Below are positions 6,504-36,391 of a DNA stretch of 64,000 nt, in pieces. Below the pieces are notes generated by a model that saw nothing but the letters and a program-made list of their open reading frames with translations, was not told the DNA's origin and did not search any database. The stretch is from Eubacteriales bacterium (GTDB lineage Bacteria; Bacillota; Clostridia; Oscillospirales; UMGS1783), in the NCBI GenBank assembly GCA_045541395.1, contig JAZQIZ010000001.1, forward strand, positions 107,701 to 171,700. The letters run 5' to 3'. Both the position numbers and the translations under genes were made by a program. Within the stretch, counting starts at the first letter, position 1. Every line of letters starts with the position of its first letter.

Positions 6504-7817
6504 ATGAAGAAAGGAAATGCAATTGCACTTTTACCTATAGCCGTATTTATTATTTTATATCTTGGCTTAGGTATACTTTTTGAGTACGTACTCAAAATTG
6601 AAATGGGTTTCTATAATATCCCTATTGTTGTTATCTTTTTGATCGCATTACTTGTTGCCTGTTTGCAGAATAAAGGAATCAACTTTGATAAAAAGCTTGA
6701 AATAATGGGCAAGGGTGTTGGTGATAAGAATATTATTACCATGATTTTAATTTTCCTTTGTGCCGGCGCTTTTGTTGGCGTTGTTGGCAGAAGCAGTGCA
6801 GAAAGTGTTGCCTATTTTATGCTTTCTATTATTCCTGCTGAATTTGCAGTTGCTGTTCTGTTTGTGGTTAGCTGCTTTGTTTCTACTGCAATGGGCACCT
6901 CTGTGGGGACAATTACACTTATAACCCCTATAGCTGTTGCAGTTTCCGCTGCTTCCGGTTTCAGTATGCCTTTATGTGTAGGTACTGTTGTTGGCGGTGC
7001 TATGTTCGGTGATAACCTTTCCTTTATTTCCGATACTACTATTGCCGCCTGTAACGGTCAGGGATGCGCCATGAAGGATAAGTTTAAAGCTAACTTCTGG
7101 ATCGCGCTTCCTGCTGCTATAGCAACTTTAATTATAATTATAATATTCTCATTAACTGCCGAAAATCCTGTAGCTGTAGAAAATACATATAATCTTGTTC
7201 AGATCATTCCTTATATTCTCGTTCTTATTGGCGGTATTGCCGGTATTAACGTATTTGCGGTTCTGCTTATCGGCATAGTGTCAGGTTCTGTTATTATGCT
7301 TGCTACCGGCGCTATTGAACCCACTGCTCTTCTGGCTAATATGGGCACCGGCGCTGCAGGTATGTTTGAAACAACAATGGTTGCTATTTTAGTATCTGCC
7401 ATCTGCGCACTTATTCGTGAATACGGCGGCTTTGATGCTCTTCTTAGCGGCATTAAGCGTGTATTCAAGGGCAAAAAGGGCGGTCAGTTAGGTATGGGCC
7501 TTTTAGTTGGTGCAATGGATATTGCTACTGCAAATAATACTGTTGCTATTGTAATGGCTAACCCCATTGCAAAAGAAATGTCTGAAACCTATGGTATATC
7601 TCCCAAGAAATCTGCTTCTCTGCTTGATACTTTCTCTTGCATATTCCAGGGCATTATTCCTTACGGCGCACAGATACTTGTTGCAATAGCCGCTGTATCT
7701 ACTGCGGGTTATTCTATTTCCGCTTTTGAAATAATACCCTACCTGTTCTATCCGTTCTTATTGCTTGTAAGCTCACTTATTTTCATTTTCCTTGTTCCTG
7801 AAAAGAAAAATAAATAA
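6504..7817 (+). CDS. Na+/H+ antiporter NhaC-family transporter (MetT-like amino-acid transporter group)
   Basis: Multi-TM; MGTSVGT, GGAMFGDNLSFISDTTIAA, ANNTVAI, IPYGAQ motifs; GAGG RBS before ATG 6504. Confidence 0.85.
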   Translation: MKKGNAIALLPIAVFIILYLGLGILFEYVLKIEMGFYNIPIVVIFLIALLVACLQNKGINFDKKLEIMGKGVGDKNIITMILIFLCAGAFVGVVGRSSAESVAYFMLSIIPAEFAVAVLFVVSCFVSTAMGTSVGTITLITPIAVAVSAASGFSMPLCVGTVVGGAMFGDNLSFISDTTIAACNGQGCAMKDKFKANFWIALPAAIATLIIIIIFSLTAENPVAVENTYNLVQIIPYILVLIGGIAGINVFAVLLIGIVSGSVIMLATGAIEPTALLANMGTGAAGMFETTMVAILVSAICALIREYGGFDALLSGIKRVFKGKKGGQLGMGLLVGAMDIATANNTVAIVMANPIAKEMSETYGISPKKSASLLDTFSCIFQGIIPYGAQILVAIAAVSTAGYSISAFEIIPYLFYPFLLLVSSLIFIFLVPEKKNK

Positions 7818-19735: not shown

Positions 19736-20662
19736 ATGAAAAAAGTATTTATTGACGGAAGCGCCGGAACTACCGGACTTCGTATATATGACAGGCTAAC
19801 AGGGCGAAAAGATATTACCCTTATCACTCTTAAAGAAAGCGAAAGAAAAGATGATAATTTTAGAAAAGCTGCCCTTAATGAAAGTGATATAGCTTTTTTA
19901 TGTTTGCCGGATGAAGAGGCACGAAGAGCGGTCGTGATGACTGAAAATAATAATACTGTGCTTATAGATACTTCTACTGCTCACAGAACTTTTGAAGATT
20001 GGGCTTACGGTTTTCCTGAACTTTCAAAAGAGTTATATGCTAAAATAGAAAATTCAAAAAGAATTGCAGTTCCCGGATGCCATGCAAGCGGGTTTATTGC
20101 CCTTGTATACCCTCTTATAGAAAAAGGGATTATAAATAAGGACATTTTACTAACCTGCCACTCTGTTACCGGTTACAGCGGAGGCGGTAAAAAAATGATA
20201 ACGGAATATGAGGGCGAGGGAAGGGATTTTCTTTTAGGTGCTCCTCGTCAGTACGGCATCACGCAGAATCATAAACATCTTAAAGAGATGGTTAAGATCT
20301 CAGGCATTGAGAATACACCTATATTTTGCCCAATAGTATCGGATTTTTACAGCGGTATGGCGGTAACCGTCCCTCTGTTTAAAAAGGATATTCAGGGCAG
20401 CTTTGATGATATTAAAAAAGTTTATTCCGAAAAATATAACACAAATACTGTTTACTATAAAGAAGATATATCAAAAGGCGGCTTTATAAGCGCTCTTGGT
20501 ATGAGCAAAAAAGACAGTATGGAAATAAGTGTTTGCGGTAATGAGGATAGGATCCTTTTAACTGCATTGTACGACAATTTAGGTAAAGGCTCTTCAGGTG
20601 CTGCAATTCAGTGTCTCAATATTGTTATGGGAGCAGAAATGACCGAAGGTCTTGAACTTTAA
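19736..20662 (+). CDS. argC: N-acetyl-gamma-glutamyl-phosphate reductase (type 2)
   Basis: VFIDGSAGTTG, AVPGCHASG, GYSGGGK, DNLGKGSSGAA. Confidence 0.95.
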   Translation: MKKVFIDGSAGTTGLRIYDRLTGRKDITLITLKESERKDDNFRKAALNESDIAFLCLPDEEARRAVVMTENNNTVLIDTSTAHRTFEDWAYGFPELSKELYAKIENSKRIAVPGCHASGFIALVYPLIEKGIINKDILLTCHSVTGYSGGGKKMITEYEGEGRDFLLGAPRQYGITQNHKHLKEMVKISGIENTPIFCPIVSDFYSGMAVTVPLFKKDIQGSFDDIKKVYSEKYNTNTVYYKEDISKGGFISALGMSKKDSMEISVCGNEDRILLTALYDNLGKGSSGAAIQCLNIVMGAEMTEGLEL

Positions 20663-20674
20663 AGGAGAATTAAT

Positions 20675-21889
20675 ATGAAATTAACAGAAGGCGGCGTTTG
20701 CGCTGCACAGGGCTTTAGTGCTAACGGTATTCATTGCGGCATACGCGCAGGCAAAACTAAGCGTGATCTTGCTCTTATATTCAGTGAGGTTCCTGCGTCT
20801 GCTGCTTCGGTTTATACAACAAACCTTGTGAAGGGCGCTCCTATTACCGTAACCAAAGAAAATATATCCAACGGTATTGCTCAGGCAATTATCTGCAATA
20901 GCGGTAACGCAAATACTTGCAATGCAAACGGTGTTGAAATTGCTAAAAAGACCTGTAAGCTCATTGCAAATGAGCTTAAAATAAACGAAAATGACGTTGT
21001 TGTTGCTTCTACAGGCGTTATAGGTCAGCCTTTAAGCATTACTCCTATAGAAAAAGGTATTCCTGAGTTGGTTAAAGGTTTAAATAAAAACAACAGTGAA
21101 ATTGCCGCAGAAGGTATTATGACTACCGATACAAGGCTTAAGCAGATAGCGATATCATTTGATATTGACGGTGTTGAATGTAAAATAGGCGGTATTGCAG
21201 AGGGCTCCGGTATGATCCACCCCGATATGGCCACTATGCTGGTGTTCATTACTACCGACTGTGCAATTTCTCCCGAACTTTTGCAGAAAGCATTAAGTAC
21301 CGATATTAAAAATACCTTCAATATGGTTAGTGTCGACGGGGATACATCTACTAATGATATGGTTACTGTTCTGGCAAACGGTATGGCCCAAAACGAACCT
21401 ATTTGTATTGAAGATGAAAACTTTGAGATATTCATGAAGGCCCTGAATACGGTTACTGTATATTTATGCAGATGCATAGCAGGTGACGGTGAAGGTGCTA
21501 CCAAGCTACTTGAATGCAAAGTTGAAGGCGGCAAAACAGAAGATATTGCAAAAACGGTTGCCAAATCCGTTATCTGTTCCTCCCTTACAAAAGCAGCAAT
21601 GTTTGGCGCAGATGCGAATTGGGGCAGAGTACTATGCGCTATCGGATACAGTAAAGCGCCTGTTGACGTAAATAAGATCGACGTTTCATTTAGATCCGAA
21701 AAGGGTCAGATCAACGTTTGCAGGAACGGTGCAGGTATTGAATTTTCGGAAGAAAAGGCAAAAGAAGTACTTCTTTGTAATGAAATAGAAATACTCATTA
21801 ATTTAAACTCAGGTGAAAATAAGGCTACTGCCTGGGGCTGTGATCTTACTTATGATTACGTTAAGATCAACGGCGATTACAGGACTTAA
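20675..21889 (+). CDS. argJ: Ornithine acetyltransferase / N-acetylglutamate synthase
   Basis: NSGNAN, STGVIG, MTTDT, GMIHPDMATML, DGDTSTND, DGEGATK, NWGR, NGDYRT. Confidence 0.95.
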   Translation: MKLTEGGVCAAQGFSANGIHCGIRAGKTKRDLALIFSEVPASAASVYTTNLVKGAPITVTKENISNGIAQAIICNSGNANTCNANGVEIAKKTCKLIANELKINENDVVVASTGVIGQPLSITPIEKGIPELVKGLNKNNSEIAAEGIMTTDTRLKQIAISFDIDGVECKIGGIAEGSGMIHPDMATMLVFITTDCAISPELLQKALSTDIKNTFNMVSVDGDTSTNDMVTVLANGMAQNEPICIEDENFEIFMKALNTVTVYLCRCIAGDGEGATKLLECKVEGGKTEDIAKTVAKSVICSSLTKAAMFGADANWGRVLCAIGYSKAPVDVNKIDVSFRSEKGQINVCRNGAGIEFSEEKAKEVLLCNEIEILINLNSGENKATAWGCDLTYDYVKINGDYRT

Positions 21890-21902
21890 TAAGGAGATAA
21901 AA

Positions 21903-22766
21903 ATGGAACTTACTAATGCACAAAGGGCGGACGTTCTTACACAGGCACTGCCATATATACAAAAATACACCAATAAGATCATTGTTATTAAATACGGCGG
22001 TAACGCAATGATCAACGAAGAATTAAAGCAGGCTGTTATGAGGGATATTGTTCTTATGTCACTTATAGGAATCAAGGTAGTTCTGGTTCACGGTGGCGGT
22101 CCTGAAATAACGGATATGCTTGGTAGAATAGGCAAGAAGAGTGAGTTTGTTAACGGTCTCCGTGTTACCGACAGAGAAACGGCAGAGGTAGTTCAAATGG
22201 TTCTTGCCGGCAAAATAAATAAGAATCTTGTTAATCTGTTGCAGAATAACGGAGGCAAGTCTATTGGTCTTTGCGGTATGGACGGTCATCTGATTGAAGC
22301 AAAGATTAAAGATGAACAGCTTGGTTTTGTAGGAGAAATAACTAATATTAACGTTGAACCCATTCTTGATGTTCTTGAAAAGGGTTATATTCCTGTTGTA
22401 TCTACTGTTGGTTGTGATGCAGAGGGAAATACATATAACATTAATGCAGATACTGCCGCTTCTAAAATTGCAGGAATGCTTAAGGCTGAGAGCCTTATTT
22501 CTATGACAGATATTGCAGGGTTATTAAGAGATAAGGATGATCCTGAATCCCTTATTAAAGTGGTGAACGTAAGTGAAGCTCCTTTGCTTGTTAAGGAAGG
22601 AATCATATCCGGAGGTATGATACCTAAAGTTGAATGTTGTATAGAAGCTATTCGCATGGGCGTTCACAAGGTATTTATTCTTGACGGTCGAGTTCCTCAT
22701 TCAATTATTATAGAAATGCTTACCGACGAAGGTATTGGAACAATGTTTGTTGGAGGTAATATATGA
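21903..22766 (+). CDS. argB: Acetylglutamate kinase
   Basis: KYGGNAM, VHGGGP, GLRVTD, NINAD, GGMIPK; AAGGAG RBS before ATG 21903. Confidence 0.96.
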   Translation: MELTNAQRADVLTQALPYIQKYTNKIIVIKYGGNAMINEELKQAVMRDIVLMSLIGIKVVLVHGGGPEITDMLGRIGKKSEFVNGLRVTDRETAEVVQMVLAGKINKNLVNLLQNNGGKSIGLCGMDGHLIEAKIKDEQLGFVGEITNINVEPILDVLEKGYIPVVSTVGCDAEGNTYNINADTAASKIAGMLKAESLISMTDIAGLLRDKDDPESLIKVVNVSEAPLLVKEGIISGGMIPKVECCIEAIRMGVHKVFILDGRVPHSIIIEMLTDEGIGTMFVGGNI

Positions 22767-23926
22767 ATACCAAAGAGAGGGATAGTTTGTACGTAGCTCA
22801 TACCTACGGAAGATTTCCTTTGGAGATCGTTAGTGGTAAAGGCTCTGTTGTTAAAGATGAAAACGGTAAGGAATATATTGATCTTGGTACAGGTATTGCT
22901 GTAAACGCATTTGGTATTTGTGATGATATCTGGGTAAAGGCTGTAACAGAACAGCTTGCCAGGTGTCAGCATACCTCAAATCTGTATTATTCTGAGCCAT
23001 GTACTAAGCTAGCGCAGCTGCTTTGCGAAAAAACCGGAATGAAGAAAGTGTTCTTTTCCAATTCAGGTGCAGAGGCTAATGAGTGTGCAATAAAGGGCGC
23101 AAGAAAATATGCACAGGACAAAAAGGGCAAGGATTATTACACAATAATTACTCTTGTTAACAGCTTTCACGGAAGAACCATAACAACTCTTGCTGCAACC
23201 GGCCAAGAAACCTTCCATAAGGAATTTACACCTTTAACAGAAGGCTTTGTATATGCGCAGTCTAATAATATTGAGGACCTTAAAGAAAAGGTTAACAATA
23301 ACAAGGTTGCTGCTATTATGTTTGAGGTTGTACAGGGTGAAGGCGGTGTTTTGCCTTTAGAAAGAGACTTTGTTGAGGCAATGGTTCAGATTGCAATGGA
23401 GCAGGATATTCTTCTTATTGCGGATGAAGTTCAAACCGGTAACGGCAGAACTGGTATGCTTTACGGATATATGAATTTTGGATTTACTCCCGATATTGTT
23501 TCAACAGCTAAGGGCCTTGGCGCAGGGCTGCCTATCGGTGCAACAATGTTTAACGAAAAAACCGAAAACGTTTATTCTCCCGGCCTTCACGGATCTACTT
23601 TTGGCGGAAACCCTGTATGTTGTGCAGGCGCAATTTCGGTTGTTGAGAGAATGGATAAAGAGTTTCTTGAAAGTGTTAGAGAAAAATCAGATTATATATT
23701 TACTGCTCTTAACGGTGCAAAGGGTGTAAAGAGCGTATCCGGTATGGGCCTTATGATAGGTATCGAAACCGAAAAGGATGCAAAACAGGTTATTTCAGAA
23801 TGTATGGAAAAAGGTGTTTTAGTTATTAGCGCAAAAACAAAAGTAAGGCTTTTGCCTGCATTGAATATTCCAATGAGACAGCTGGAGAAGGCTATTGAAA
23901 TTATTAAAGAGGTGTGTGCAAAATGA
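22763..23926 (+). CDS. argD: Acetylornithine aminotransferase
   Basis: NSGAEANE, SFHGRT, QGEGG, DEVQTG, AKGLG, HGSTFGGNP. Confidence 0.95.
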   Translation: MNTKERDSLYVAHTYGRFPLEIVSGKGSVVKDENGKEYIDLGTGIAVNAFGICDDIWVKAVTEQLARCQHTSNLYYSEPCTKLAQLLCEKTGMKKVFFSNSGAEANECAIKGARKYAQDKKGKDYYTIITLVNSFHGRTITTLAATGQETFHKEFTPLTEGFVYAQSNNIEDLKEKVNNNKVAAIMFEVVQGEGGVLPLERDFVEAMVQIAMEQDILLIADEVQTGNGRTGMLYGYMNFGFTPDIVSTAKGLGAGLPIGATMFNEKTENVYSPGLHGSTFGGNPVCCAGAISVVERMDKEFLESVREKSDYIFTALNGAKGVKSVSGMGLMIGIETEKDAKQVISECMEKGVLVISAKTKVRLLPALNIPMRQLEKAIEIIKEVCAK

Positions 23927-24831
23927 AGCATTTATTGAAACTTATGGATCTCTCTTCCGAAGAAATTCGTGAAATACTTGATCTTGCCGATCAGTTAAAA
24001 TATGAAAAGAAAAACGGTATCGAGCATCATTTACTTAAAGGGAAAACACTTGGTATGATATTCTCCAAATCTTCTACACGTACAAGAGTTTCTTTTGAGG
24101 TAGGTATGTACGATTTAGGTGGCAGTGCTTTATTTTTAAGCGCACGTGATCTGCAAATAGGTCGTGGCGAGCCTGTTGAAGATACTGCAAGGGTACTGTC
24201 AAGATACCTTGACGGTATTATGATACGAACCTTCGATCAGAGTGAGGTCGAAGACCTTGCAAAATACGGTTCTATACCCATTATTAACGGGCTTACAGAC
24301 TACTGCCATCCATGCCAGGTTCTTGCTGATTTACTTACAATTCGTGAGTATAAGGGTATTCTTAGCGGTAAAAAGCTTTGCTATATAGGTGACGGAAATA
24401 ATATGACCAACTCCCTTATTGTTGGCGGTATTAAAATGGGAATGAAGGTAAGCGTAGGTTGCCCCGATAACTACAGACCTGATGCTGAGCTCATGAAATG
24501 GGCAAATGAAAACGGTGAATTTGAATGTACTTCCGATATATACAAAGCAGCAAAAGACGCAGACGTTTTATATACCGACGTTTGGGCGTCTATGGGGCAG
24601 GAACAGGAAGCGCAGCTTAGAAAAGAAGTGTTTAAGGGCTATCAGATCAATAACAGCGTAATGGCTGTAGCAAAGCCCGATGCAATGGTTCTTCACTGTC
24701 TGCCTGCTCACAGAGAAGAAGAAATTACTGCAGAGGTATTTGAAGCCCATGCAAATGAAATTTTTGATGAAGCTGAAAACAGACTTCATGCACAGAAGGC
24801 TGTTCTTGTTAAGTGTATGTCGGAGAAATAA
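23923..24831 (+). CDS. argF: Ornithine carbamoyltransferase
   Basis: SSTRTRVSFE, HPCQ, DVWASMG, HCLP, AENRLH. Confidence 0.97.
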   Translation: MKHLLKLMDLSSEEIREILDLADQLKYEKKNGIEHHLLKGKTLGMIFSKSSTRTRVSFEVGMYDLGGSALFLSARDLQIGRGEPVEDTARVLSRYLDGIMIRTFDQSEVEDLAKYGSIPIINGLTDYCHPCQVLADLLTIREYKGILSGKKLCYIGDGNNMTNSLIVGGIKMGMKVSVGCPDNYRPDAELMKWANENGEFECTSDIYKAAKDADVLYTDVWASMGQEQEAQLRKEVFKGYQINNSVMAVAKPDAMVLHCLPAHREEEITAEVFEAHANEIFDEAENRLHAQKAVLVKCMSEK

Positions 24832-24837
24832 TTTTTT

Positions 24838-25884
24838 ATGAAAAAAGCATATTTGGTATTGGAAGACGGTACCGTATTTGAAGGTTACCGTTTCGGTGCA
24901 CAGGCCAACGCATTAGGTGAGCTTGTGTTTACAACAGGGGTTTGCGGTTATATTGAGACCCTTACAGATCCTTCATATTGTGGTCAGATAGTAGTACAGA
25001 CCTTTCCTATGATAGGTAACTACGGTTTTATTTCTGAGGATATGGATGGAAAATGCGCTCTGACAGGCTACGTTGTAAGGGAATGGTGCGATTCGCCCTC
25101 AAACTTTCGCTCTGAAGGTACAATAGATGAATTTCTGAAGAGAGCAGGTATTCCCGGTATTTGTGGAGTAGATACAAGGCATCTGACTGCCATACTGAGA
25201 GAAAAGGGAAGTATGAACGCTTACATTTGTGATAGTGTTCCCGATGATCTAAGTATTGTTAAATTTCACAAATCGGAAGAGCCAGTTAAGAAGGTTACCT
25301 GCGAGGAAGTTAAAAAATACGCGGCTGATAAAGCAAAACATAATATTGCATTAATTGATTTCGGAACAAAGATATCTCTTATACAGGCTTTGAACAATAA
25401 AGGCTGTAACGTTTCTGTTTATCCTGCTAATTCACCCCTGATCAGTGTTTTACCGGATCTTTATGACGGTATTGTGCTTTCCGGAGGTCCGGGCGAGCCT
25501 AAGCCGGGAGAGTATACCGAGACCATTAAGGCGCTGTTTGGCAAAAAGCCCGTATTGGCAATTGGCCTTGGGCATCAGCTTCTTGCTTTGGCATGCGGTG
25601 CAAAAATATTTAAAATGAACCACGGCCACCGTGGTGCTAACCAGCCGTGCCGATATTTAGCAGGTAATCGAACCTATATAACCGAGCAAAACCATGGTTA
25701 TGCTGTTGATAAAGACAGTGTTATTACAGGCGTAATTAGTTTTGTTAATGCTAATGACGGCACCTGTGAGGGTATTGAATATAAAGAACAAAGGGCTGTT
25801 TCGGTTCAGTTTTATCCTGATGATTGTAATGGTACGGAGTTTGTGTATCATCAGTTCATTGATATGATGGGAGGTGCAAACTAA
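24838..25884 (+). CDS. carA: Carbamoyl-phosphate synthase small subunit with degenerate glutaminase site
   Basis: LVLEDG, TDPSY.GQ, GVDTR, GHRGANQP, QNHGYAV; AIGLGHQ replaces GICLGHQ and QFYPD replaces QxHPE. Confidence 0.92.
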   Translation: MKKAYLVLEDGTVFEGYRFGAQANALGELVFTTGVCGYIETLTDPSYCGQIVVQTFPMIGNYGFISEDMDGKCALTGYVVREWCDSPSNFRSEGTIDEFLKRAGIPGICGVDTRHLTAILREKGSMNAYICDSVPDDLSIVKFHKSEEPVKKVTCEEVKKYAADKAKHNIALIDFGTKISLIQALNNKGCNVSVYPANSPLISVLPDLYDGIVLSGGPGEPKPGEYTETIKALFGKKPVLAIGLGHQLLALACGAKIFKMNHGHRGANQPCRYLAGNRTYITEQNHGYAVDKDSVITGVISFVNANDGTCEGIEYKEQRAVSVQFYPDDCNGTEFVYHQFIDMMGGAN

Positions 25885-28800
25885 TGCCATTAGACAGCAC
25901 TATAAAGAAAGTAATGGTAATTGGTTCCGGCCCTATTATTATCGGTCAGGCCGCAGAATTTGACTATGCGGGTGCTCAGGCTTGCCGTGTGCTTAAACAA
26001 GCAGGCGTTAACGTTGTGCTTGTAAATTCCAATCCCGCCACAATTATGACGGATAAGGCATTGGCCGATGAAATATATCTTGAACCTTTAACAACAGAAA
26101 CTTTAAAAAGGATAATAGAAAAAGAAAAACCTGACAGTTTACTGGCGGGTCTTGGCGGACAAACAGGTCTTACTTTATCTATGCAGTTGTCTAAGGACGG
26201 ATTTTTGAAAAATCACGGAGTAAGGCTCATTGGTACTAATGAAGAGGCTATTGACAAAGCCGAGGACCGTCAGCTTTTTAAGGACGCAATGGAGGCTATA
26301 GGTCAGCCTGTTATTCCTTCAGAGATCTCAAACACAGTAGAAGATTCTCTTATGATCGCCGATAGAATTGGTTATCCCGTTATTGTAAGACCTGCCTTTA
26401 CTTTGGGTGGTTCCGGCGGCGGTGTTGCTTATAATGAAGATGAGTTGAAGGAAATTGCTAGATCCGGTCTTGATGCTTCTCCTATAACACAGATACTTGT
26501 TGAGAAATATATTTGGGGTTGGAAGGAAATTGAGTTTGAAACCATGCGAGATTACGCAGGCAATGCTATTGCGGTTTGCAGTATGGAAAACTTCGACCCT
26601 GTAGGTGTGCACACAGGCGACAGTATTGTTTGTGCGCCGGCCCTTACTTTATCTTCTAAAGAATACAAAATGCTGCATGACGCATCTATGGCGATAGTTA
26701 ACGAACTCGAGATCGTTGGTGGCTGCAACTGCCAGTTTGCTCTTAATCCTGATAGTATGGAGTACGCTGTAATTGAAGTAAATCCTAGGGTCTCTCGTTC
26801 TTCGGCGCTTGCTTCAAAGGCAACCGGTTATCCTATTGCAAAAATAACAACAAAGGTTGCTCTTGGGTACACTTTAGATGAAATTGAAAATGAAATAACA
26901 GGGAAGACCTGCGCTTGCTTTGAGCCTACTGTTGACTACGTTGTTGTGAAATTTCCAAAGTGGCCTTTTGATAAATTTGTGGGAGCAAGCAGAAAGCTTG
27001 GAACACAAATGAAGGCAACGGGAGAGGTAATGTCTATAGGTACCTCTTTTGAAATGGCTATTATGAAGGCCGTTCGTGGCGCTGAAATCTCATTGGATAC
27101 CCTTAATGCGGCACCAATAAACGATCTTTCTTTGGAAGAAAGGCTTGCTGCCTGCGATGACCGCAGGATATTCACTGTTTTTGAAGCAATTAAAAGCGGT
27201 TTTGATATTGAAAAGATTTATGAAATAACTAGAATAGACAGGTTCTTTCTTTATAAACTTAAAAAACTTGCAGATTATGAAAAAGATATTGAACGAAATG
27301 GTTTAAATGAAGAAACATATTATTTGGGTAAAGATTTAGGGTATCCCGATGCAGCACTTATGCGCATTGCAAACCTTAAAGCCCTTCCTGTGAACAAGAA
27401 TGCAGTATATAAGATGGTAGATACTTGCGCAGCGGAATTTGATGCAAAAACACCGTATTTTTATTCTACGTACGATAATTACTGCGAATCAAAGAATTTT
27501 GTCAGAAGCGGCAATCCTGTTGTTATGGTTTTAGGTTCAGGTCCAATCAGGATTGGTCAGGGTATAGAGTTTGACTATTCTTCGGTTCACTGCGTTTGGA
27601 CTTTGAAAGAGCAGGGATACGACGTAGTAATTGTAAATAATAACCCTGAGACTGTTTCAACCGACTACGACACTGCCGACAGGCTTTATTTTGAACCTTT
27701 AACTCCTGAAGATGTTATGAATATAATAAGGGTCGAAAATCCAATTGGTGTTGTTGTTGCATTTGGCGGACAAACTGCCATCAAGCTTACTAAGTTTTTG
27801 GATGATAACGGTATTCCTATTTTAGGAACTTCGGCTGAAGGTATTGATATTGCCGAAGACAGAGAACGTTTTGATGAGCTTCTTGAAAGTTTCTCAATTA
27901 AGCGTCCTAAGGGTTTTGGTGTCATGACAGAAAAAGAGGCCCTTGAGGCGGCTGAAAGTTTGGGATATCCTGTGCTTTTGCGTCCTTCTTACGTTATTGG
28001 TGGGCAGAATATGTCTATCGTTCATAATGAAAAGGAAGTAAAAGTTTATATGGAACGAATACTTTCTACAGGTATTGAGAATCCTGTGCTTGTGGATAAG
28101 TATATGATGGGAACAGAGCTCGAGGTAGACGTTATTTCTGATGGAGACGATGTTCTTATTCCCGGAATTATGGAGCATATTGAACGTGCAGGCGTTCATA
28201 GCGGTGACTCCATTGCAGTATACCCTCCATACAATATTAACGATAAAATGATAAGCACTGTTGTTGAGTGTTCATCTAAACTTGCTCTTTCAATGGGGAC
28301 TAAAGGCCTTGTAAATATTCAATATCTTATTTACAATAATGAGCTTTACGTTATTGAGGTAAATCCCAGAGCATCCCGTACAGTTCCCTATATAAGTAAG
28401 GTGACCGGGGTTCCGATGGTTGATCTTGCTTCAAAGGTTATGCTTGGTGCTTCCCTTGAGTCATTGGGTTATGGCACCGGTCTTTATAAGCTTCCGCCTT
28501 ATTATGCTGTAAAAGTGCCCGTATTTTCTTTTGAAAAGTTAACAGATGTTAATTCCTATCTTGGACCTGAAATGAAGTCTACAGGTGAGGTTCTTGGTAT
28601 TGGTAAGACCCTGAATGAAGCATTGTTTAAGGGAATGACATCCGCTGGCTTTGAATTGAAAACTCCTCATAAAGGTGAAGATGCCGGTGTACTGATAAGC
28701 GTTAGCGAGCATGATCTATTAGAGGTTGTTGCCTTAGCTAAAAAACTGGACGACCTTAATATGAAAATATATGCTACAAAGGACACCGCAGAATCTATTT

Positions 28801-29924
28801 CTCAACTTGGAATAGATGTAACCGTAATAAGCGGTATTAGAGAAAGTGATGATGCTTTCAAACTTCTCGAAAGCGGGAAAATAAGCTATATTGTTTATAC
28901 CGGTGCAGTTTATGATAGTACAGAAGAGGATTATATTGCTCTTCACAGAAAAGCGCTTTCGTTGTCTATTGCTTGCCTTACTTCTTTAGATACTGCGAAT
29001 GCTTTGGCTGACGTTATTGCCGCAAGATATAATGAATGTAATACGGAACTTGTTGATATCAATAATATGCGCTCCTCCCGCAGGAAGATTAATTTCTCCA
29101 AAATGCAGGGTTGCGGGGATGACTATATTTTCATTGAGAATTTTGACGGAGCAATAACCTGTCCGGAATCTCTGTGTATACAGCTATGTGACCGTCATTA
29201 CGGTATTGGTGCAGACGGTATTGTTCTTATAGAGAATTCTCAGGTCGCAGATGCGAAAATGCGTATTTTTAATATTGATGGCAGTGAAGGCAAGATGGCA
29301 GGTAACAGTATCCGCTCTGTAGGTAAATACCTTTACGATAACGGTATTGTGAATTCCCTTAATATTACTGTTGAAACTGCAAGCGGTATTAAGAGTATGT
29401 CAATGTTTTTGCGTAACGGCAAGGTGAATTTCGCAAGTGTGGATATGGGCAGAGCAAGTCTTGATCCAAAATCTTTACCTTGCACCCTTGAAGGAGAAAA
29501 GATCATTAATAAGCCTGTAAAGATCGGCGGGCAGACCTACAGCATTAACTGTGTTTCTATGGGAAATCCTCATTGTGTAGTATTCTGCGACAGAGTAGAC
29601 AGAATTGATATCAACAATATAGGGCCCTTATTTGAAACTGCAGAAATTTTCCCTGAAAGGGTAAATACTGAATTTGTACGTGTTGTTAATGAAAATACCC
29701 TTAAAATGCGTGTATATGAGCGGGGTAACGGCGAAACAATGGCCTGTGGTACAGGTGCTTGTGCAGCGGTTGTTGCTGCTTGCGAAAACGGGCTTTGCAA
29801 AATGGGAGTAGATATTACCGTGAAAGTTAAGGGCGGCGACCTTATTGTTAACTACACAAACGAAAGAATTATTCTTTCCGGTGATACAAGGCTTGTATAT
29901 ACCGGTGTGTATGACGGTATGTGA
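25884..29924 (+). CDS. carB: Carbamoyl-phosphate synthase large subunit fused to a C-terminal diaminopimelate-epimerase-like domain
   Basis: Two ATP-grasp halves (GSGPIIIGQAAEFDY; GSGPIRIGQGIEFDY), MGS-like domain, then from about residue 1069 (nt 29088) a DapF fold: FSKMQG, GIGADG, SMGNPH, NTEF, YERG.GET.ACGTG. Confidence 0.95.
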   Translation: MPLDSTIKKVMVIGSGPIIIGQAAEFDYAGAQACRVLKQAGVNVVLVNSNPATIMTDKALADEIYLEPLTTETLKRIIEKEKPDSLLAGLGGQTGLTLSMQLSKDGFLKNHGVRLIGTNEEAIDKAEDRQLFKDAMEAIGQPVIPSEISNTVEDSLMIADRIGYPVIVRPAFTLGGSGGGVAYNEDELKEIARSGLDASPITQILVEKYIWGWKEIEFETMRDYAGNAIAVCSMENFDPVGVHTGDSIVCAPALTLSSKEYKMLHDASMAIVNELEIVGGCNCQFALNPDSMEYAVIEVNPRVSRSSALASKATGYPIAKITTKVALGYTLDEIENEITGKTCACFEPTVDYVVVKFPKWPFDKFVGASRKLGTQMKATGEVMSIGTSFEMAIMKAVRGAEISLDTLNAAPINDLSLEERLAACDDRRIFTVFEAIKSGFDIEKIYEITRIDRFFLYKLKKLADYEKDIERNGLNEETYYLGKDLGYPDAALMRIANLKALPVNKNAVYKMVDTCAAEFDAKTPYFYSTYDNYCESKNFVRSGNPVVMVLGSGPIRIGQGIEFDYSSVHCVWTLKEQGYDVVIVNNNPETVSTDYDTADRLYFEPLTPEDVMNIIRVENPIGVVVAFGGQTAIKLTKFLDDNGIPILGTSAEGIDIAEDRERFDELLESFSIKRPKGFGVMTEKEALEAAESLGYPVLLRPSYVIGGQNMSIVHNEKEVKVYMERILSTGIENPVLVDKYMMGTELEVDVISDGDDVLIPGIMEHIERAGVHSGDSIAVYPPYNINDKMISTVVECSSKLALSMGTKGLVNIQYLIYNNELYVIEVNPRASRTVPYISKVTGVPMVDLASKVMLGASLESLGYGTGLYKLPPYYAVKVPVFSFEKLTDVNSYLGPEMKSTGEVLGIGKTLNEALFKGMTSAGFELKTPHKGEDAGVLISVSEHDLLEVVALAKKLDDLNMKIYATKDTAESISQLGIDVTVISGIRESDDAFKLLESGKISYIVYTGAVYDSTEEDYIALHRKALSLSIACLTSLDTANALADVIAARYNECNTELVDINNMRSSRRKINFSKMQGCGDDYIFIENFDGAITCPESLCIQLCDRHYGIGADGIVLIENSQVADAKMRIFNIDGSEGKMAGNSIRSVGKYLYDNGIVNSLNITVETASGIKSMSMFLRNGKVNFASVDMGRASLDPKSLPCTLEGEKIINKPVKIGGQTYSINCVSMGNPHCVVFCDRVDRIDINNIGPLFETAEIFPERVNTEFVRVVNENTLKMRVYERGNGETMACGTGACAAVVAACENGLCKMGVDITVKVKGGDLIVNYTNERIILSGDTRLVYTGVYDGM

Positions 29925-34477: not shown

Positions 34478-35194
34478 ATGAAAGTATCTTCAATTAAAGA
34501 CGAACTTAATTCACTTGCATATCACGGCAGAGGTATAATGATAGGAAAAAGTGCTGATAGTAAAAAGGCTGTAACTGCATATTTCATTATGGGCAGAAGC
34601 GAAAACAGCCGTAACAGAGTATTCGTTGCTGAAGGCGAAGCTATGCGCACAAAGGCTTTCGATGAATCAAAGATGACAGATCCTCATCTTATTATATATT
34701 ATCCTGTTCGTGTTCTTGGCAACAAAACAATAGTTACTAACGGTGACCAAACCGATACTATATATGAGTTAATGGATAAACAGATGACCTTCGAACAGGC
34801 TCTTCGAACCAGAGAATTTGAAGATGATAAGCCTAATTTTACCCCCAGGATTTCAGGTATTATTCACCGTGAAAACGGCGATATAAATTATGCTATGTCT
34901 ATTCTTAAAAGTGCTGAGGGGGATGACAGTTCCTGTGAGCGTTTCACATATGCTTATTCTTCTCCCAAAGCCGGTTATGTGAAGTTTATTCATACCTATA
35001 ACGGTGACGGTAATCCGCTTCCTTCATTTGAAGGTGAACCTAAAACTTTAGAACTTCCCAATACTGATATTGATTCTTTGACAGAATTACTTTGGGAAAA
35101 TCTGAATGAAGATAACAAAGTGTCTCTGTTTGTAAGATATATTGATATTGCGACAGGTGAAACTGAAACAAGAATTGTTAATAAAAACAAATAA
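34478..35194 (+). CDS. purO: Stand-alone IMP cyclohydrolase (PurO-like Ntn fold)
   Basis: YHGRG, YFIMGRSENSRNR, VTNGDQTD, FEDDKPNFTPRISG; located between purN and the AICAR transformylase. Confidence 0.8.
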   Translation: MKVSSIKDELNSLAYHGRGIMIGKSADSKKAVTAYFIMGRSENSRNRVFVAEGEAMRTKAFDESKMTDPHLIIYYPVRVLGNKTIVTNGDQTDTIYELMDKQMTFEQALRTREFEDDKPNFTPRISGIIHRENGDINYAMSILKSAEGDDSSCERFTYAYSSPKAGYVKFIHTYNGDGNPLPSFEGEPKTLELPNTDIDSLTELLWENLNEDNKVSLFVRYIDIATGETETRIVNKNK

Positions 35195-35206: not shown

Positions 35207-36391
35207 ATGAAAGAATTTGAACTTAAATATGGCTGTAACCCCAATCAGAAGCCTTCTAAAATTTATATGCACGACGGAAGCGATCTTCCTATTGAGATCC
35301 TTAACGGTCGTCCCGGCTATATTAATTTTTTAGATGCTTTTAATAGTTGGCAGCTTGTGAAAGAACTTAAGGCTGCTTTAGGAATGCCTTGTGCTACTTC
35401 ATTTAAGCATGTTAGCCCTACTTCAGCAGCTGTTGGCACCAAGCTATCAGATGAACTGAAAAAGGCATGCTTTGTTGATGACGTTGAAGGTCTTGACGAT
35501 TCTCCGTTGGCTTGTGCCTATGCCAGAGCAAGAGGCACTGACAGAATGTCTTCTTTTGGTGATTTCATTGCTCTTAGTGATGTTTGTGATGTTACAACTG
35601 CAATGCTTATTAAAAGGGAAGTTTCTGATGGTGTAATTGCTCCGGGATATACTGAAGAAGCTCTTGAAATTTTAAAGGCAAAGAAAAAGGGCAATTACAA
35701 TGTTATTAAAATTGATCCTGCTTATATACCCGATCCTCAGGAACACAAGCAGGTTTTCGGAATAACATTTGAGCAGGGAAGAAACAATTTTGAAATAAAT
35801 AAAGAACTTTTAAATAATCTTGTTACAAAAAATAAAGAGCTTCCGGAAAGTGCAGTTCGTGACCTTATAATTGCACTTATTACTTTAAAGTATACACAGT
35901 CTAATTCTGTTTGCTATGCTGTTGATGGCCAGGCAATAGGTGTTGGTGCCGGCCAGCAGTCCAGAATTCATTGTACAAGACTTGCCGGTTCCAAAGCAGA
36001 TAACTGGCATCTTCGTCAGAGCGAAAAGGTGCTTAATCTTCCTTTCTTGCCTAAGTTGGGCAGACCTGATAGAGACAATGTAATTGACGTTTATATTTCA
36101 GATGACTATGAGGATGTTATTGGTGAAGGTAATTGGCAACAGTATTTTACTGTAAAGCCTGAAGCCTTTACTAAGGAAGAGAAGAGAGCTTATCTTGATA
36201 AGATTAGCGGTGTTTCAGTTGGAAGCGATGCATTCTTCCCGTTTTCTGATAATATTGAAAGAGCTAAAAAGAGTGGAGTCAGCTACATCGCTCAGCCCGG
36301 TGGTTCAATCAGAGATGATGCTGTTATTGATTGTTGTGATAAATACGGTATTGCTATGGCGTTCACCGGCATGCGACTTTTCCATCATTAA
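35207..36391 (+). CDS. purH: AICAR transformylase lacking the IMP-cyclohydrolase domain
   Basis: Begins at LKYGCNPNQ; SFKHVSP, KYTQSNSV, GQQSRIHC, SDAFFPF, QPGGSIRD, RLFHH. Confidence 0.9.
   Translation: MKEFELKYGCNPNQKPSKIYMHDGSDLPIEILNGRPGYINFLDAFNSWQLVKELKAALGMPCATSFKHVSPTSAAVGTKLSDELKKACFVDDVEGLDDSPLACAYARARGTDRMSSFGDFIALSDVCDVTTAMLIKREVSDGVIAPGYTEEALEILKAKKKGNYNVIKIDPAYIPDPQEHKQVFGITFEQGRNNFEINKELLNNLVTKNKELPESAVRDLIIALITLKYTQSNSVCYAVDGQAIGVGAGQQSRIHCTRLAGSKADNWHLRQSEKVLNLPFLPKLGRPDRDNVIDVYISDDYEDVIGEGNWQQYFTVKPEAFTKEEKRAYLDKISGVSVGSDAFFPFSDNIERAKKSGVSYIAQPGGSIRDDAVIDCCDKYGIAMAFTGMRLFHH

Follow-up and report, generated by a model that had tools for sequence, protein, structure and literature searches.

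We describe here a fusion, in a gut-dwelling member of the Eubacteriales (Eubacteriales bacterium, UMGS1783), between the large subunit of carbamoyl-phosphate synthetase, CarB, and a domain derived from diaminopimelate (DAP) epimerase, DapF. The fused gene occupies positions 25884..29924 of the window, by which we mean the whole 64,000-nucleotide stretch of DNA that was analysed (assembly GCA_045541395.1, contig JAZQIZ010000001.1, 107,701-171,700 forward); window features are on the + strand. The encoded protein consists of a complete CarB and a full DapF domain, with a very short tether between them. This domain has the marks of a pseudoenzyme, in that a catalytic residue has been lost and the ligand pocket has been kept under purifying selection. 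What is new is a DapF-derived accessory domain on a known enzyme, carbamoyl-phosphate synthetase, that occurs both in a bifunctional form and in a pseudoenzyme form. We put the chances at about even that the dead epimerase has been kept in the lineage of the window as a ligand-binding regulatory module of the synthetase, a sensor role that we infer from comparison of sequences.

The open reading frame encodes 1346 residues plus a stop and is without internal stops. Residues 1-1048 match the CarB family models (NF003671, 1432 bits against a cut-off of 599; TIGR01369, 1393 bits against 1027). They comprise a catalytic core of two ATP-grasp units and an oligomerisation domain (residues 1-930, 25884..28673; two matches each to PF02786 and PF25596, one to PF02787, together with NF003671), followed by an MGS-like allosteric domain (residues 931-1048, 28674..29027; PF02142 and alignment to E. 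coli 1a9x). In the same taxonomic order, unfused CarBs stop near window residue 1062, with '..LVDITKI', and the sequence 'NTELVDINNMR' (in general 'NTELVDINxMR') is therefore the native CarB tail, which leaves a tether of only about 6 residues (tail and tether together 29028..29087, by comparison with unfused CarBs). The DapF-derived domain follows (residues 1069-1346, 29088..29921). It is matched by TIGR00652 over residues 1069-1343 (267.6 bits, cut-off 114.65) and, in two stretches that correspond to both half-domains, by PF01678 (180 bits). A first-pass annotation of the window had described a single 1346-residue frame ending in a complete DapF, and the frame call and the TIGR01369, NF003671 and TIGR00652 matches bear this out.

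That an assembly or frameshift artefact has joined separate carB and dapF genes is so improbable as to be negligible. We found no point in its support, and the same open frame recurs in related genomes, in public contigs and in protein collections. Within a set of 41 related genomes, drawn from the window's own genome, genus, family and order, the DapF match falls within an open frame of 1325-1432 residues in 14. A scan of species-representative genomes gave 80 loci, 36 of them fused, and when long proteins were searched with the DapF part, 6967 of 8000 scored candidates matched. The best 120 of these 6967, hereafter the closest homologues, all combine CarB domains with PF01678. As read evidence we used short Logan contigs, counting a junction as bridged where 31 letters were present on both sides. 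One such contig (X20, from another run and an RNA library) spans 28888-29103 without indels and alone bridges the end of the native CarB (~29069), the other Logan records stopping too near to it. A stop or misassembly near 29080, which would have undone the first-pass description, is thus not the case.

The DapF-derived domain is readily placed. Against solved structures, the C-terminal 279 residues of the protein match DapF-family entries only (16 of diaminopimelate epimerase and the O-ureido-serine racemase 7vdy), the best relative being Bacillus anthracis DapF (2otn, E 1.8e-71; this match and TIGR00652 define the domain limits given above). In the alignment to 2otn, 'kmagnsirs' of the window stands opposite 'kscgnglrc', and 'macgtgac' opposite 'qacgtgac'. 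The position of the catalytic Cys73 is occupied by Ala1139 (codon 29298..29300), and the second catalytic cysteine, the equivalent of Cys217, is kept as Cys1288 (29745..29747). Asp1079 (29118..29120, by sequence alignment) stands at the Asn11 position, so that the GNDF motif reads GDDY. The motifs as first read (MAGNSIRS with Ala1139, GDDY, and an intact ACGTG with Cys1288) are all correct by this alignment. DapF requires two cysteines, and with Ala1139 and Cys1288 the window domain has one of them.

The substitution is a property of the group and not of this gene. Among the closest homologues the Cys73 position holds Ala in 118, Gly in 2 and Cys in none, with Cys at the Cys217 position in 120/120; at the Asn11 position there is Asp in 107 and Asn in 13. 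To compare fusions more widely we divided 50 fused sequences by the residues aligned to N1015 and T1017 of E. coli CarB into type I, with Ser-Ser (27 sequences), and type II, with Tyr/Phe/Leu-Gly/Ala (23, the window included); the closest homologues all show the type II pattern. The first cysteine is present in 18/27 type I sequences (the others having G 3, S 2, A 4) and in 0/23 of type II (A 20, G 2, S 1). Conservation of the loss of this Cys, mostly to Ala, which the first-pass annotation had wished to see established, is thereby found for type II. The second cysteine is present in 23/23 type II and 26/27 type I sequences. With Ala in place of Cys73 and no further Cys close by in the motif, the type II domain appears to have ceased to epimerise DAP, and it is most improbable that the cell relies on it as its DAP epimerase. 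Type I is presumably a true bifunctional enzyme.

The pocket itself has been retained. At the reacting centre of DAP, the carboxylate is bound by G74, N75, G218 and S219 of DapF and the alpha-amino group is contacted by N11 (H. influenzae DapF); at the distal centre, the amino group is bound by E208 and the carboxylate by N64, N157, N190 and R209, as set out in the accessible text of PMC8225329, which cites Pillai 2006. The same text describes a DapF relative with a different substrate in which the distal residues are replaced. All of the DAP-binding residues that we tested (G74, N75, G218, S219; N64, N157, N190, E208, R209) are present in the window domain, where N64 corresponds to Asn1130 and R209 to Arg1280. 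The equivalents of N64, N157, H159, N190, E208, R209, C217, G218 and T219 (S219) are identical in 120/120 closest homologues and reach 95% conservation or more across the 23 sequences of type II; the G74 equivalent is also invariant in the closest homologues, and that of N75 varies (N in 98, S in 22). That the distal residues are kept in the lineage of the window therefore indicates a ligand of DAP length with an L-amino-acid end. The change of Asn11 to Asp in the window's subgroup would favour the binding of an ammonium group. We also considered this Asp as a replacement base and rejected it as a general feature, Asn being kept in 15/23 type II sequences.

The retained pocket appears to be under unchanged constraint, which fits a binding role. 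The ratio of DapF-domain to CarB-core divergence hardly differs between the types, at 1.62 over 253 pairs in type II and 1.64 over 325 pairs in type I, with CarB-core identities of 0.736 and 0.731 and DapF-domain identities of 0.573 and 0.559, respectively. Of the 278 positions of the DapF domain, 66 reach 95% conservation or more in type II and 74 do so in type I sequences with both cysteines; 51 are shared, including the equivalents of N64, G74, N75, N157, N190, E208, R209, C217, G218 and S219. As far as such comparisons go, the Cys-less domain is not decaying and is under purifying selection equal to that on two-Cys fused domains. A fused domain that has decayed is seen in an Acutalibacter metagenome-assembled genome (MAG; L070, 4414-6171), in which both cysteines are lost, GNPH has become GNPS and ER has become KR. 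An intact stand-alone dapF lies downstream at 6843-7703, and the record has masked letters inside carB. Unconstrained fused domains therefore do decay.

The part of the protein that has changed its character is the MGS-like domain. The residues of E. coli CarB that we take to be nucleotide-effector residues, K954, N1015 and T1017, correspond to L945, Y1005 and G1007 in the window, and K993 corresponds to G984; the equivalents of S948, T974, T977 (Thr968 in the window) and T1042 are kept. The first-pass annotation had called this domain divergent, and the alignment to E. coli CarB, with L, G, Y and G at four effector positions, agrees. Thr977 and Lys993 of E. coli CarB are crucial to inhibition by, and binding of, uridine monophosphate (UMP), according to the available part of PMC6245113. 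Of this pair, which we used as the mark of a UMP/inosine monophosphate (IMP) effector site and which reports on regulation and not on catalysis, the window CarB keeps the threonine as Thr968 and has replaced the lysine with Gly984. The K993 equivalent is Lys in 26/26 full-length type I sequences, in 3/23 of type II and in 14/18 unfused CarBs, and the K954 equivalent follows the same pattern across the types. Loss of Cys73 thus coincides with loss of the nucleotide-effector residues of CarB. At equal core identity, the mean within-type identity of the MGS-like domain is 0.504 in type II against 0.634 in type I, and by this measure it is the MGS-like domain, and not the DapF domain, that has relaxed in type II.

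The genome of the window (1.78 Mb, 35 contigs, 97.5% complete) has a route to meso-DAP of its own. A profile search of it with PF01678 matched only the two halves of the fused domain, which answers in the negative the question of a separate intact dapF that had been raised with the first description. The meso-DAP dehydrogenase Ddh is present (427 bits, cut-off 180.6), as are LysA and two DapA, with ddh between lysA and dapA in a cluster at G000:C1:318587-323870; there is no match over cut-off in this genome for the LL-DAP aminotransferase DapL. Because Ddh makes meso-DAP directly, the organism needs no epimerase, and its gene content shows epimerase activity to be dispensable here. The same holds more broadly, in that all 11 related genomes in which the fused domain lacks Cys73 (G000, G021, G032, G026, G029, G018, G028, G014, G023, G037 and G017) have a stand-alone dapF, ddh or both; in G021 and G028 the stand-alone dapF adjoins dapL.

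A different situation is found in G012 (99% complete), which has DapL (525 bits) and LysA and in which neither Ddh nor a stand-alone dapF was found. Its fused domain keeps both cysteines and is the sole DapF found in that genome, and, to judge by gene content, it must be the working epimerase there. Two-Cys type I fusions such as this one, together with the TIGR00652 score over cut-off, are what can be said for regarding the window protein too as a bifunctional CarB/DapF with a fully active DAP epimerase. The Ala at the Cys73 position, the use of Ddh by the window genome and the lack of a DapL match over cut-off in it make this highly improbable. The earlier description of the domain as a dead epimerase stands on the same evidence (Cys73 to Ala, Ddh and LysA without DapL). 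In one further genome, G016 (90% complete; locus L037), the fused domain keeps the first Cys and has Ser at the second; LysA is present, and neither a stand-alone dapF nor a Ddh or DapL over cut-off turned up.

The history of the cysteines can be followed in a FastTree phylogeny of 126 DapF domains, whose weak deep nodes (0.37-0.56) allow the losses to be counted and ordered only approximately. All the fused domains fall in a single clade (SH-like support 0.93), within which three stand-alone sequences are also nested; two of these three lie next to the fused genes of L052 and L070. Within type I, type II forms a monophyletic group (SH-like support 0.80). Changes at the first Cys number 4 by Fitch parsimony, all within the fused clade, and Cys73 is kept in 74/74 of the stand-alone DapFs in the tree. 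Only two sequences lack Cys217, those of L037 and L070.

This asymmetry bears on whether the domain might still be an enzyme, either a slow epimerase in which water or another group stands in for Cys73 or a one-base enzyme that uses Cys1288, for example in an elimination or exchange. Cys217 is kept throughout the closest homologues and in nearly all fusions of both types, and loss has struck Cys73 far more often; single-Cys DapF mutants can catalyse the elimination of hydrogen fluoride from fluoro-DAP. Set against this, there is no conserved replacement base, the +3 and +6 positions varying among S, C, N, A and G, the pathways encoded in the neighbourhood call for no such reaction, and every genome with the Cys-less domain has another route to meso-DAP. 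The E. coli DapF C73A/C217A double mutant is inactive, according to the available text of PMC6061791. We consider a residual enzymatic function unlikely, and for the particular form of it put forward in the first-pass annotation, a one-cysteine enzyme fed by channelled carbamoyl phosphate, we found nothing in support.

If the domain is not a catalyst, its attachment to CarB becomes of interest. An AlphaFold2 model of residues 553-1346, made with 47 aligned fusions, has a mean pLDDT of 86.9 and a pTM of 0.85, and pLDDT in the tether is 88-89. We also used ESMFold2 to model CarB 553-1060 and the DapF domain as a complex, each with a 47-row alignment. The complex scored 0.65 (runs 0.65, 0.66, 0.63) and the best of three controls scored 0.00, the runs sharing at least 96% of contacts, with partner pLDDT of at least 89. 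That mark is reached by 58/80 solved complexes and 2/110 mismatched pairs, counts that apply only roughly here since the alignments were our own. Since no PDB chain matched holds both parts, the docking is not a remembered complex. Contacts between the domains, which had been proposed for modelling from the start, are predicted by the complex model. On CarB they involve 786-788, 790-791, 818-820 and 869-870 (E. coli ~802-807, 834-836 and ~883-884), and on the DapF domain 107-110, 114-115, 117, 201-203, 241-244, 251, 253 and 264-266. Stretches 114-117 and 264-266 of the DapF domain are presumably where the chain crosses from one half-domain to the other, and so form the hinge. The hinge side of DapF is accordingly predicted to dock on the second ATP-grasp domain of CarB. 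At this interface D787 is found in 23/23 type II and 23/26 type I sequences and in 9/18 unfused CarBs, and the 'GLYK.PP' loop (866-872) is conserved in fused CarBs and variable in the 18 unfused.

A defined predicted interface and a tether of about 6 residues would also suit a domain with a structural or oligomerising role only, in which a natural dimer docked on CarB strengthens the synthetase dimer and ligand binding is irrelevant. E. coli DapF is a tight dimer (accessible text of PMC6061791), E. coli carbamoyl-phosphate synthetase forms its dimers through the regulatory domains (accessible text of PMC6245113), and the equivalent of the dimer-interface residue Tyr268 is, by our own position mapping, Tyr or Phe in 14 aligned fused domains. 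Such a role would leave unexplained why the polar residues that contact DAP, and Cys217 with them, are invariant in 120/120 closest homologues, and why L070 has lost them. In E. coli, moreover, oligomerisation by itself is without effect on regulation, as reported in the part of PMC6245113 available. We regard a purely structural role as less likely than a regulatory one, though it deserves more weight than a surviving catalytic one.

The mechanism that we favour, retention of the dead epimerase as a ligand-binding regulatory module, would operate as follows. The type II domain would bind meso-DAP, or a molecule of the same length with an L-alpha-amino-acid end. It would sit rigidly, as predicted, with its hinge side on the carbamate-phosphorylating ATP-grasp domain and beside the allosteric domain. 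The open-to-closed hinge motion of the DapF fold could then be passed on to the synthetase and so provide it with an effector site that it did not have before. The domain probably has an obligatory structural or dimerising role as well. The first candidate ligand is meso-DAP, because it is the sole DAP isomer expected in this Ddh organism. Its D-centre would, we assume, face the retained Cys217. A more specific proposal, which we offer as possible but doubtful, is that meso-DAP controls the supply of carbamoyl phosphate for arginine, and in some species for pyrimidines, in place of UMP and IMP, in a role begun in bifunctional CarB-DapF ancestors. Fusions of the bifunctional type are still common in gut and rumen Clostridia.

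Several considerations weigh against a regulatory module. Binding of a ligand, the identity of that ligand and an effect on synthetase activity are all inferred from sequence. The pocket residues could owe their conservation to a part in holding together the two-domain fold, and the Ser variants in L029, L035 and L088 could retain some epimerase activity. The predicted interface lies on the ATP-grasp domain and not on the allosteric domain, and it rests on the model's own confidence. Conservation at the interface is supportive only, because the fused CarBs are kin and may share it by inheritance. Type II is one clade (support 0.80), so that one evolutionary event could account for the joint loss of Cys73 and of the nucleotide site. 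Finally, the fused CarB is the only CarB found in 3/8 type II related genomes (G021, G028 and G014), and for these the description 'arginine-specific' fails.

It is useful to set the protein beside systems already known. Its domain order is that of E. coli CarAB (1jdb, 1a9x), with CarB residues 1-1048 aligning end to end with the family models, and it retains the equivalents of E783, D791 and T1042 (the ornithine region) and of S948, T974 and T977. Unlike the E. coli enzyme, it carries a further 278-residue DapF-derived domain past the native C-terminus, has Gly for Lys993 and changes at K954, N1015 and T1017, and is partnered by a CarA without the catalytic triad. With canonical DapF (B. anthracis 2otn, H. 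influenzae 1gqz/2gke) it shares the two-domain fold, as judged by sequence, the DAP-contacting residues and the second Cys; it differs in having Ala at the first Cys and Asp at Asn11, in being fused to CarB and in being dispensable for DAP synthesis. Type I fusions (L052 of Neglectibacter caecimuris M00184, L073 of AM07-15, and G012) share with the window the architecture, the tail 'NTELVDIN.MR' and the DapF clade, but differ in that the first Cys is kept in 18/27, K954 and K993 are kept, and the arg operon adjoins in 1/27. The glutaminase-like domain of human CPS1 is inactive. CPS1 (5dot/5dou) is among the PDB matches of the window CarA (E 1.1e-52). Its activator N-acetylglutamate binds at the C-terminal domain (PMC4655335, in its available part); there the activator site is on the MGS-like domain and no DapF domain is present, whereas the putative additional ligand pocket of the window protein is a borrowed enzyme fold. 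A precedent for the DapF fold acting on another enzyme by contact is the activation of RppH by E. coli DapF (available text of PMC6061791), although in that case the proteins are separate and DapF is catalytically active, whereas in the window the domain is fused and one catalytic Cys is lost.

In the literature we found no description of a CarB-DapF fusion or of a DapF pseudoenzyme, subscription journals and supplements lying outside the search; the GapMind 2026 paper deals, in its accessible text, with DapF2 and not with a CarB-DapF fusion (PMC13759103). The proposal of an undescribed system in this window may thus hold as regards the literature. It needs amending in two respects: the fusion is not peculiar to this genome, and it is not inherently 'dead'. 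One practical consequence is that annotation pipelines may credit dapF from a domain that does not epimerise, or miss a real dapF inside carB, as in G012. The family also provides a natural series from bifunctional enzyme to pseudoenzyme, well suited to the study of how a catalytic fold is turned to regulatory or structural use. Carbamoyl-phosphate synthetase is a textbook allosteric enzyme, and if DAP or a relative of it does regulate the fused form, a new connection would join the metabolism of cell wall and lysine to that of arginine and pyrimidines in abundant gut anaerobes. Experimental work is feasible, because cultured type I strains exist (Neglectibacter caecimuris M00184 and Ruminococcaceae bacterium AM07-15).

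The fusion is widespread and patchily distributed. Thousands of fused protein clusters come from gut, rumen and faecal metagenomes, and in public records the proteins are named 'carbamoyl-phosphate synthase large subunit' or 'diaminopimelate epimerase, partial'. The fused loci come, as labelled, from Oscillospiraceae, Ruminococcus, Christensenellaceae, Selenomonadaceae, Treponema and Spirochaetaceae MAGs and from the isolate Ruminococcaceae bacterium AM07-15. In 11 other genomes of the window's family (G001-G011) no fused form was found, with any DapF-like match at all in just 3; the closest fused relatives sit in families other than that of the window. The patchy arg-carAB::dapF block may be mobile or often lost. 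In cultured Neglectibacter caecimuris M00184 the fused gene (L052, 4119..8198) has both cysteines, and a stand-alone dapF paralogue lies 1.8 kb downstream (L052, 9986-10843). Three loci of Treponema and Spirochaetaceae MAGs (L067, L068 and L098) have longer fused frames of 1398-1451 residues with Ala at the first Cys. In the DapF tree the spirochaete fusions nest in the Clostridia fused clade, which suggests transfer. A protein of 1509 residues (P0104) has PF00988, the CarA N-domain, in addition to CarB and DapF domains, and may be a three-part fusion without the glutaminase domain.

No stand-alone Cys-less DapF family was identified among the at least 120 listed homologues of 153-489 residues, a listing that leaves room for one. 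Short Cys-less matches were considered as stand-alone paralogues and set aside, the best being fragments of fused genes and many carrying PF02142 or a CarB name. Among 150 DapF representatives, 134 have Cys at the first site, and of 5 examined among the other 16, 4 are fusion fragments; P0245, from the search of representatives, begins inside the CarB tail with 'MDINALR'. In P0319 (332 residues), a possible chimera or further fusion, the C-terminal part resembles DapF without the Cys and the N-terminus is Cys-rich and unrelated. P0368 (280 residues) has Ser at the first catalytic site.

The gene for the small subunit, carA, lies immediately upstream of the fused gene (24838..25884), and alignment to 1c30_B shows that its glutaminase triad is destroyed (C269->G, H353->Y, E355->D). 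Cys269 and His353 are essential for glutamine hydrolysis, according to the available text of PMC6245113; the window CarA thus has none of the triad Cys269-His353-Glu355. This carA is the single PF00988 match in the whole genome. A second carB, of ordinary length, is present on contig C27 (73153-76386), in a neighbourhood that we read, from the order of frames and N-terminal sequences only, as pyrC-carB-pyrK-pyrD-pyrF-pyrE-pyrB, with no carA of its own there. Because the CarA is dead and there is no second carA, direct use of ammonia is suggested, and both synthetases may run on free ammonia. Destroyed triads are found in 6/41 of the CarA partners of fused CarBs, in both fusion types; those beyond the window are in L029, L032, L043, L058 and L099 (Cys269 to Gly or Ser, His353 lost). 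We therefore rejected a dead CarA as the regular partner of a dead DapF. The earlier claim that CarA is inactive is borne out by the G/Y/D triad, but its coupling to the fusion is not, since the loss is independent of the state of the DapF domain. In L049, L050 and L069 no carA was detected between argF and the fused carB directly after it, and the gene for the small subunit may have been lost or may lie elsewhere.

Directly upstream of carA lie argC, argJ, argB, argD and argF (19736..24831), identified from their translations and from homology between loci, with no family scan. The order argC-argJ-argB-argD-argF-carA-carB recurs in L025-L031 and other loci. Overall, arg genes stand directly upstream in 18/23 type II against 1/27 type I loci, several loci being cut by contig ends. 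Downstream of the fused gene is a purine operon, in which purE, a PurO-like and a PurH-like protein were confirmed. The PurO-type IMP cyclohydrolase (34478-35194) matches PF07826 with 228 bits. The PurH-like protein (35207-36391) matches PF01808 over profile positions 76-311 of 311 only and is without the N-terminal MGS-like part typical of full-length PurH. Together these two neighbours point to a split final step of purine synthesis.

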